Positions 22,715 to 24,741 of a stretch of 43,594 nucleotides of DNA are shown here, piece by piece. The DNA is from a virus (lineage: Duplodnaviria > Heunggongvirae > Uroviricota > Caudoviricetes). Location of the stretch: IMG/VR virus record IMGVR_UViG_2526164599_000004; one strand, given 5' to 3'. Within the stretch, counting starts at the first letter, position 1; the number at the start of each line of letters is the position of its first letter. The notes under the pieces were generated by a model. It did not search any database. It was not told the DNA's origin and was given only the letters and a program-made list of their open reading frames with translations. The position numbers and the translations under genes were made by a program.

Positions 22715-22930
22715 ATGAAATCCATGGATAAGTTAACAACGGGTGTCGCCTATGGCACCTCAGCAGGTAGTGCCGGTTACTGGTTTTTACAGCTGCTCGA
22801 TAAAGTCACGCCCTCACAGTGGGCAGCAATAGGTGTGCAGGGTAGCCTGGTATTTGGCCTGCTGACGTACCTGACAAACCTTTATTTCAAGATTAAAGAA
22901 GATAAGCGCAAGGCTGCGAGAGGTGAATAA
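22715..22930 (+). CDS. essD: Class II holin / pinholin (S21 type)
   Basis: 71 aa [31 protein letters not shown]...; matches DLP12 EssD / phage 21 S. Confidence 0.9.
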
Positions 22931-24741
22931 TGCCTCCATCATTACGAAAAGCCGTTGCTGCTGCTATTGGTGGCGGAGCAATTGCTATAGCATCAGTGTT
23001 AATCACTGGCCCAAGTGGTAACGATGGTCTGGAAGGTGTCAGCTACATACCATACAAAGATATTGTTGGTGTATGGACTGAACCGCCCCGGGTTTCCTGG
23101 AGAGTGTTTTATCTGTGAACTCAGGCTGCCAGATCATCGTTTCCGATGGAAGCATAATAAGCTTTTTCTGCTTCTGCCGGTGGGATATGGCCCAGCCTTT
23201 CCAGCAATCGTCGATTGTTATACCAGTCCACCCACGTGAGTGTGGCCAGCTCCACTTCTGTCCGGTTTTTCCAGCTCTTACGGTGTATTACCTCCGCTTT
23301 GTAAAGGCCATTGATGCTCTCCGCCATCGCGTTGTCATACGAGTCACCAGTACTTCCTGTTGATGCCAGTAATCCGGCTTCCTTAAGCCGCTGTGTGTAG
23401 GCCAGCGATACATACTGAGAACCTTTATCACTGTGATGGACTGTGCCGGACGGTCGACGGGCCCATAACGCCTGCTCCAGAGCATCCAGCACGAATGTCG
23501 TTTCCATAGACGATGAGACCCGCCACCCCACGATGTATCCGGCAAACACATCAATGATGAACGCCACATAGACGACCCCCTGCCATGTGCTGACGTAAGT
23601 AAAATCAGCCACCCACAACTGGTCAGGACGTTCTGCCACAAACTGACGGTTTACGCGGTCGCCTGCGGCAACGGCTTTCCGGCTGACGGTAGTGCGGACC
23701 TTTTTACCCCGGAGAACACCGGCAAGTCCCATAACCGCCATGAGGCGCGCCACTGTACATCTGGCTACCCTGATTCCTTCCCGTAACAACTGACGCCAGA
23801 CTTTACGCACACCGTATACCTGATGATTCCCATCGTATACGCGCAGTATCTCTTTCTTCAGCCAGTCATCGCGCTGCGCACGGGCACTGCGTTTATCAGG
23901 ATGATGTCGCTGTTGCTGACAGTGGTAATACGTTGACGGGGCAATATGTAGTTCACTGCATACCGGTCCGACCCCGTACAGCTTACGCAGCTTATCCAGC
24001 AGTGGCATCACTTTTTCCAGAGGCGGTCGAACTCCGCCTTCGCAAAATAAGCGGAAGCCTGGCGAAGGATATCGTTACTGCGGCGCAGTTCACGATTTTC
24101 ACGTTCCAGCTCTTTCAGACGCTGACGTTCAGCGGTGGTGAGCCCGCCATCACCGCCTCCGGTATCCCGCTCATGCTGGCGTACCCAGACACGCAGAGTC
24201 TCCGGTGTACAGTCAATCTTTGGGGCAATGGAACAAATTGCCGCCCACTGTGAGTCATATTCGCCCTGACTTTCCAGAACCATACGAATCGCCCTCTGAC
24301 GGACTTCGGGGGAAAAACGAGTATTTTTAGTCATCCTGTTTACCTCTTTCTCAGGGAGTTTAGTCTCCAGGATTCCCGGGGCGGTTCAGGACTGTATGTC
24401 ACGGGCATACAGGAAAAGACATCATGCTCGGTAAAACGTATACCAAAGCAGAATGCAAAGCCCTCCTGAATAAAGACCTTGCCACGGTCGCCAGACAAAT
24501 TAACCCGTACATCAAAGTCGATATACCGGAAACAATGCGCGGCGCTCTTTACTCATTCGTTTACAACGTGGGTGCTGGCAATTTCAGAACATCGACGCTT
24601 CTTCGCAAAATAAACCAGGGCGATATCAAAGGCGCATGTGATCAGCTACGTCGCTGGACATATGCTGGCGGTAAGCAATGGAAAGGTCTCATGACTCGTC
24701 GTGAGATTGAGCGTGAAATCTGTTTGTGGGGTCAGCAATGA
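22930..24741 (+). pseudogene. rrrD: SAR endolysin (R21/RrrD-type lysozyme) split by IS629 copy 2
   Basis: 5' part 22930-23078 encodes [50 protein letters not shown] (SAR signal-anchor); the frame resumes at 24389 ([22 protein letters not shown]...WGQQ); 1310 bp of IS lies between. Confidence 0.9.
23079..24388 (-). mobile_element. IS629 (IS3 family), copy 2, 1310 bp, flanked by 4-bp target-site duplication GGAC
   Basis: Same element as copy 1 (identical ORF translations); inverted repeats TGAACCGCCCCGGG; direct repeat GGAC at 23075-23078 and 24389-24392; orfB 23121-24011 and orfA 24008-24334 on the minus strand. Confidence 0.9.

Follow-up and report, generated by a model that had tools for sequence, protein, structure and literature searches.

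In the viral record IMGVR_UViG_2526164599_000004 of IMG/VR (43,594 nt, one strand, hereafter called the window), a phage-21-type signal-arrest-release (SAR) endolysin gene at positions 22930-24741 is interrupted by a 1310-bp IS629-type insertion sequence (IS) at 23079-24388, and the only endolysin gene of the lysis cassette is split within its catalytic motif. In all likelihood this is the outcome of a recent and ordinary transposition of an intact element into codon 50 of the gene, in a lambda-like prophage that resides at ybhC in Escherichia coli DEC13D, with a predicted loss of lysis and at a position which appears to be a preferred site.

The 5' fragment of the SAR endolysin gene (22930..23078, plus strand) contains codons 1-49 and two nucleotides of codon T50, which corresponds to residues 1-50 of PDB entry 3HDE and includes the SAR domain, E35 and D44. 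Position 23078 is the last of the 'AC' of codon T50, the IS contributes its initial T to restore ACT, and the frame continues through 12 IS codons to a stop at 23118. The open reading frame (ORF) that is present (22930..23118, plus strand) therefore encodes a 62-aa truncated endolysin with an IS-encoded tail of 12 residues, deposited as 'lysozyme' EHX68146.1 and found on 5 contigs. The 3' fragment (24393..24741, plus strand) runs from the final nucleotide of codon 50 to the stop codon, with V51 starting at 24394. Its longest ORF (24424-24741, plus strand) comprises 105 aa from M61, without the SAR domain and without the catalytic motif. A single uninterrupted endolysin ORF is thus absent from the window, as the gene is split between 23078 and 24393 by 1310 bp plus a 4-bp duplication. 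The initial annotation let the frame end at 23078 and resume at 24389; the first position is correct for the endolysin part, whereas 24389-24392 is the duplicated GGAC and the uninterrupted sequence only restarts at 24393.

When the IS and one GGAC were removed in silico, a 498-nt ORF encoding 165 aa was restored. The rebuilt protein is identical at 165/165 residues to 3HDE_A, the crystallised full-length lysozyme of phage 21, and differs from K-12 RrrD (PDB 4ZPU) at 2/165 residues. Because of the complete match to 3HDE, both fragments must derive from one ancestral gene, and the opposite case, which the initial annotation had raised as an objection to its own reading, is excluded; its assignment to the SAR endolysins is confirmed by the same comparison. 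The rebuilt ORF contains a T4-type (GH24) lysozyme domain (PF00959, E=1.3e-45, residues 34-156) and, with exact spacing, the E-X8-D-X5-T lysozyme motif as quoted in PMC9239132, formed by E35, D44 and T50. The insertion point is codon T50, i.e., the threonine of this motif. The N-terminus shows the SAR signature, as R6 and K7 are followed by a weakly hydrophobic stretch of 19 residues, 12/19 of them Ala, Gly, Ser or Thr, in a sequence equal to that of 3HDE. Judged by its sequence, the disrupted gene is a pseudogene of the phage 21 R/RrrD-type SAR endolysin family.

The inserted element (23079..24388, minus strand) belongs to the IS3 family, has TG...CA ends and is apparently intact. Its terminal inverted repeats, IRR at the orfB-proximal end (23079..23103) and IRL at the orfA-proximal end (24364..24388), are imperfect, with 26-nt arms that are 92% complementary. 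orfA (24008..24334, minus strand) encodes 108 aa with an HTH_Tnp_1 domain (PF01527) and orfB (23121..24011, minus strand) encodes 296 aa from a GTG start, with HTH_21 and the rve DDE core (PF13276, PF00665, PF13683). At the orfA/orfB overlap the ALIL pseudoknot, which stimulates the -1 frameshift, was detected at full length (23937..24053, minus strand; Rfam RF01497, 116.2 bits). The target-site duplication GGAC is found at 23075..23078 on the left and at 24389..24392 on the right; a 4-bp flank match alone would occur by chance in about 1 of 256 cases, but the single GGAC at the empty sites of related strains (see below) decides the matter. With a clean 4-bp duplication on both sides of an intact element, the view that an IS629 copy had entered by simple insertion is upheld.

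The IS629-specific primers from PMC3271280 match the element at 22/22 and 19/20 positions. It is 95% identical to copies from the O111 lineage that RefSeq labels 'IS1203 family', and IS1203 is described as an isoform of IS629, whose sub-types differ by 4-5% and produce duplications of 3-4 bp (PMC3271280). Copies that are 100% identical to the window IS are present on plasmids and chromosomes of enterotoxigenic E. coli (e.g., H10407), where they are labelled only 'IS3 family'. From these matches it seems reasonable to name the element IS629.

The other genes of the lysis cassette are open. A pinholin gene of the S21/EssD type is located at 22715..22930 (plus strand; 71 aa, dual start MKSM, two transmembrane domains; PF04971, E=3.5e-34). 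Downstream of the endolysin fragments follow the i-spanin gene Rz (24738..25196, plus strand; 152 aa; PF03245, E=4.5e-40) and, inside Rz in the +1 frame, the gene of the o-spanin lipoprotein Rz1 (24958..25143, plus strand; 61 aa, Cys20 after ...LLGVSA; PF06085, E=2.2e-20). All three had been considered intact, which is true for the reading frames and the Pfam families but has to be qualified for the holin, as this carries the rare allele L42Q: codon 42 (22838-22840), in the second transmembrane domain, encodes Gln instead of Leu. Q42 occurs only in the window and its sister strains, whereas Leu is found in six other loci and in K-12 EssD. At least 1000 contigs carry the L form, compared with 4 that carry the Q form (7 contigs read). 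Since a sister strain with an intact endolysin also has L42Q, the allele does not represent decay after the knockout. No literature on holin L42 was found.

For lysis the following consequences are predicted. IS629 has most likely transposed into codon 50 of the SAR endolysin gene under duplication of GGAC, leaving a 62-aa stub that keeps the SAR anchor, E35 and D44, whereas some two thirds of the lysozyme fold are lost. The 3' fragment provides neither an export signal nor a catalytic motif, and the muralytic activity of the cassette is probably lost. Following the phage 21 model, Q-dependent late transcription after induction should still yield the pinholin, which would depolarise the membrane and kill the cell. 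The peptidoglycan would stay uncut, the spanins could not fuse the membranes, and virions would be trapped unless another prophage lyses the cell. This sequence of events relies on the SAR endolysin/pinholin model of lysis (PMC7312051, PMC9239132). With its only endolysin gene split, we infer on sound grounds that the prophage would be lysis-deficient. All morphogenesis genes are located downstream of the IS in the late operon, and some polarity is therefore possible. Q antitermination is expected to lessen the polarity of an IS.

Among the alternatives, the one with the best chance is that lysis still takes place, either by complementation between the two fragments or by another prophage in trans, and that the prophage would then be functionally capable of lysis in its host. 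We consider this rather unlikely, as the 3' fragment is without export signal and catalytic motif and the 5' stub is without most of the fold. Nevertheless, several points weigh against our reading here. Under the DEC13D name the same holin allele has another accession, EHX68455.1, which indicates a possible other lysis cassette in this strain. Defects of prophages in enterohaemorrhagic E. coli (EHEC) are complemented in trans, as documented for O157 Sakai (PMC2669165), and the IS-excision enhancer (IEE) can excise insertions of the IS3 family so that the gene is reactivated (PMC9397093). A co-resident prophage could thus hide the lysis defect, and excision by IEE could undo it. Furthermore, the right junction of the IS is supported by one draft assembly only, and for the O111 lineage, where the same position is hit (see below), it is uncertain how many independent events took place, as that locus is heavily rearranged.

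The host strain was identified through contig AIHI01000004.1 of E. coli DEC13D (GCA_000250375.2, locus L004), which is 100% identical to the window over the full 20,189 bases of this locus. In an exact look-up, the 62-aa fusion product was found in 5 assemblies, DEC13D among them, and in DEC13D the holin and the stub have the consecutive accessions EHX68145.1 and EHX68146.1. The prophage lies beside ybhC, at the gal side of the lambda attB region, and its genes int and xis are adjacent to ybhC. The left junction is also present in an independent read assembly (Logan SRR096913, L016), which reproduces positions 19066-23105 of the window exactly.

Two assemblies with neighbouring accession prefixes (loci L012 and L014) contain the same prophage with flanks that are 100% identical to the window, and in both the IS629 site is empty. 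In L012 (AIHJ01000015.1, GCA_000250395.2) the endolysin gene is intact, encodes 165 aa and has a single GGAC. This strain carries an IS629 copy elsewhere, at 6623-7932, with one mismatch and a GAC duplication, which lies 66 bp upstream of the holin start. Immediately upstream of Nu1 it has, in addition, an IS66-family element (about 11805-14886) with an 8-bp duplication. In L014 (AIHH01000020.1, GCA_000250355.2) the same endolysin gene is broken at window position 24521-24524 by an IS21-family element, which is 100% identical to a copy that the window has at 7945-10069. The three sister strains (the window, L012 and L014) therefore display three different IS patterns in the same late region. 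The IS-free relative E. coli F5 (L009) also shows the empty site with a single GGAC.

As the site is empty in sisters with 100% identical flanks, the insertion must be later than the split of these near-identical strains. Together with a second IS629 copy in the window, which is identical to the first (0/1310 differences), this substantiates the recent date proposed in the initial annotation, and the empty-site comparison that it had suggested for related strains is answered in silico by the single GGAC in L012, L014 and L009.

The IS patterns of the sisters also bear on the question whether the knockout was neutral. Loss of the SAR endolysin might have been selected because it benefits the lysogen, as lysis without holin could follow a drop of the proton motive force, perhaps in combination with a weak L42Q holin. 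SAR endolysins are known to be released spontaneously and to lyse cells without holin (PMC9239132), in two of the three sister assemblies the 498-bp gene was knocked out independently, by IS629 in the window and by the IS21-family element in L014, and the third has IS629 66 bp upstream of the holin start and the IS66-family element upstream of Nu1. However, these are only three strains, each with several active IS types, and the hits could be neutral in a dispensable prophage. In addition, the stretch around the insertion point is uninterrupted in about 3,900 complete genomes, compared with 31-34 that have an IS junction. We therefore regard selection as a doubtful explanation for the insertion.

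The left junction of the window, ...GTATGGAC/TGAACCGCCCC... (the slash marks the insertion point), is also present at other loci. Three of them (L005, L006 and L008) are other prophage backbones with a P21-like endolysin allele, in which the IS has the same orientation as in the window, is flanked by a 3-bp GAC duplication and differs from the window IS at 66/1310 positions. In O111:H- strain 11128 (L003) an isoform of the L005 type (one difference) is inserted in the opposite orientation, again with a GAC duplication; here the endolysin allele is diverged and a different holin is adjacent. When 5,426 complete E. coli genomes were searched with short junction probes, 31 had the left junction and 34 the right one, practically all of them members of the O111 lineage, and only complete genomes of this lineage have an IS629-family end at this position. 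The IS of the window type with a GGAC duplication was found in none of the 5,426 complete genomes. Among viral and prophage contigs scanned for the two types of junction, a single contig matched, and it was of the O111 type.

The alleles that were hit have the sequence GTATGGAC/TGTATGTCACGG in common, and another clean IS629 site seen in this analysis also reads GAC/T. For IS629, no sequence preference or hot spot was found in an earlier study (PMC3271280). Because the sisters have an empty site, the window event cannot descend from the other two insertions, and since the L005-type insertions and that of 11128 have opposite orientations and are flanked on both sides by different alleles, we arrive at a minimum of three independent insertions at this position. 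Thus, the same nucleotide appears to have been hit independently at least three times by isoforms of the IS629 family.

This argues against a common origin of all same-site insertions, in which an old insertion was inherited or spread horizontally. Such an origin would account for the left junction sequence, which is equal in all loci, and for the identical fusion ORF in five assemblies with different prophage backbones. However, it is very unlikely in view of the empty site between identical flanks in the sisters, the 66/1310 differing IS positions and the duplication of 3 bp instead of 4 bp in the other same-orientation cases, and the opposite orientation and different gene allele on both flanks in the O111 case. 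That the insertion is an artefact of draft assembly, with a misthreaded repeat and a really intact endolysin in DEC13D, is hardly credible: GCA_000250375.2 is a draft of the short-read era, IS copies are a classic cause of misjoins and the exact junction with this isoform is in no complete RefSeq E. coli genome, but a perfect 4-bp duplication is not expected of a misjoin, the Logan assembly shares the left junction and continues for 27 nt into the IS before it ends, and the same junction and fusion ORF occur in four other assemblies.

As a cause of the hot spot a hairpin was considered. In the P21 allele, the insertion point is directly followed on its 3' side by an 8-bp hairpin (z=-3.0), but the O111 allele is without it (z=+0.40) and was hit all the same, and the hairpin was discarded. 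Two products ending at residue 50 (P0017 and P0020) were likewise rejected as new insertions, as they represent holin-lysN joined to int-ybhC, i.e., IS-associated deletions of the O111 type. In four draft assemblies (L017-L020), int-ybhC follows immediately on the holin and the first 50 endolysin codons, apparently as the result of IS-associated deletions with an endpoint precisely at the insertion site in codon 50.

In RM9131 (L002, L010) and RM9975 each endolysin fragment adjoins an orfB-proximal IS end, but the 5' and the 3' fragment do so at two different IS copies, about 11 kb from each other. In contrast, 11128 has one IS in the opposite orientation between the endolysin fragments. Homologous recombination between IS copies fails to link RM9131 and RM9975 to 11128, since it preserves the pairing of IS ends and flanks.

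A further-reaching reading would be that GTATGGAC/TGTATG in R21/RrrD-type endolysin genes is a true preferred target of IS629-family transposases and that SAR endolysin genes of pathogenic E. coli rich in IS are recurrently and selectively inactivated, both together forming a repeatable, IEE-reversible switch that disarms lambdoid prophages. The selective loss of SAR endolysins would then follow from their ability to lyse the host without holin when membrane energisation fails. We regard such a switch as unlikely and put it forward as a speculation.

For the rest of the prophage, every coding sequence of the IS-free relative F5 was mapped onto the window. The genes int, xis, exo, bet, gam, kil, cIII, the LexA-like repressor gene, cro, cII, O and P are full-length, as are ren, ninE, ninX, rusA, Q and the porin gene, and also the holin gene, Nu1, A, W, B and D. 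The exact lambda cosN 12-mer GGGCGGCGACCT is present at 27645-27656, about 180 bp upstream of Nu1, and the other head and tail ORFs have lambda-like lengths. The earlier statement that the prophage is otherwise intact is therefore supported by these genes and by cosN, but two further lesions limit it. The second IS629 copy (17784-19093, minus strand), which has the same orientation as the first, lacks a target duplication (flanks CAGC and GTTC) and replaces 633 bp, comprising the 3' end of ninB and most of a dam-type methyltransferase gene, which are kept in the relatives and sisters. The IS21-family element (7945..10069, plus strand; 2125 bp) encodes IstA (390 aa) and IstB (265 aa), and is flanked by a TCAT duplication (7941-7944 and 10070-10073). 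Its insertion point is precisely the start codon of gam in the pL operon, with bet, exo, xis and int lying downstream.

The two direct repeats of IS629 (17784-24388) bracket 3,985 bp with ninE-ninX-rusA-ylcG-Q-porin-holin-lysN in a layout that resembles a composite transposon. Homologous recombination between both copies would remove Q and the holin in a single event. An intact OmpC/NmpC-like porin gene (21059-22141, minus strand; 360 aa) separates Q from the holin, as in the K-12 prophage DLP12, and late transcription must cross it antisense. After Rz, a gene encoding a 165-aa protein with a KilA-N/ORF11CD3 domain (25398-25895) is found in the window and in the sisters; L009 differs across this region.

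Taken by itself, the event is a routine one, in which a well-known element has turned a well-known gene into a pseudogene, and the prophage that carries it can probably no longer lyse its host unaided. IS629 is used in strain typing and drives the diversification of EHEC genomes. The recurrent use of one position by IS629/IS1203 isoforms is a more useful lead than the knockout. A defined hot spot, if true, would offer a handle on target choice and would warn against reading shared IS629 positions as identical by descent. Moreover, the sisters form a near-isogenic natural trio with an intact, an IS629-broken and an IS21-family-broken endolysin, which could be used to test the role of the SAR endolysin in lysogen fitness and phage release.

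Compared with known systems, the cassette resembles S21-R21-Rz-Rz1 of phage 21 (3HDE/3HDF), with the same order of holin, endolysin and Rz/Rz1, a holin of the P21 family PF04971 and an endolysin that matches at 165/165 residues. In contrast to phage 21, the endolysin gene of the window is split at codon 50, the holin is EssD-like with L42Q and a porin gene lies between Q and the holin. The latter layout, Q followed by a reverse-strand porin gene and the holin, is that of DLP12, whose essD-rrrD-rzpD cassette encodes an endolysin of the same family (2/165 differences) and a holin, EssD, that is equal to that of the window except for L42Q. However, DLP12 occupies another chromosomal site and rrrD is intact in K-12, whereas the window prophage is located at ybhC, has a complete lambda-like structural module and carries an interrupted gene.

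The closest counterpart of the lesion is the endolysin::IS1203 insertion of O111:H- 11128 (ECO111_RS04150/RS04140/RS04135), in which an IS of the same family has entered a homologue of the SAR endolysin gene at precisely this position, after ...GTATGGAC; the flanking pieces are annotated in RefSeq as partial lysozyme. It differs from the window by 65/1310 nt of the IS, the opposite orientation, the 3-bp GAC duplication, diverged endolysin and holin alleles and a rearranged locus with the 3' endolysin fragment next to int. IS629 copies are mostly located in prophages (PMC3271280), and an IS as a single-gene lesion in a lambda-like prophage of pathogenic E. coli is also seen in O157 Sakai (e.g., nu1::IS in Sp4; Asadulghani 2009, PMC2669165). 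In Sakai, every lambdoid prophage has a full set of lysis genes (PMC2669165), whereas in the window the lysis enzyme itself is hit. The lacZ::IS600 insertion of Shiga toxin-producing E. coli O121:H19 (PMC9397093) shares with the window an IS3-family element, a short duplication and an inactivated gene, and is reversible by IEE; it involves another IS and another gene.

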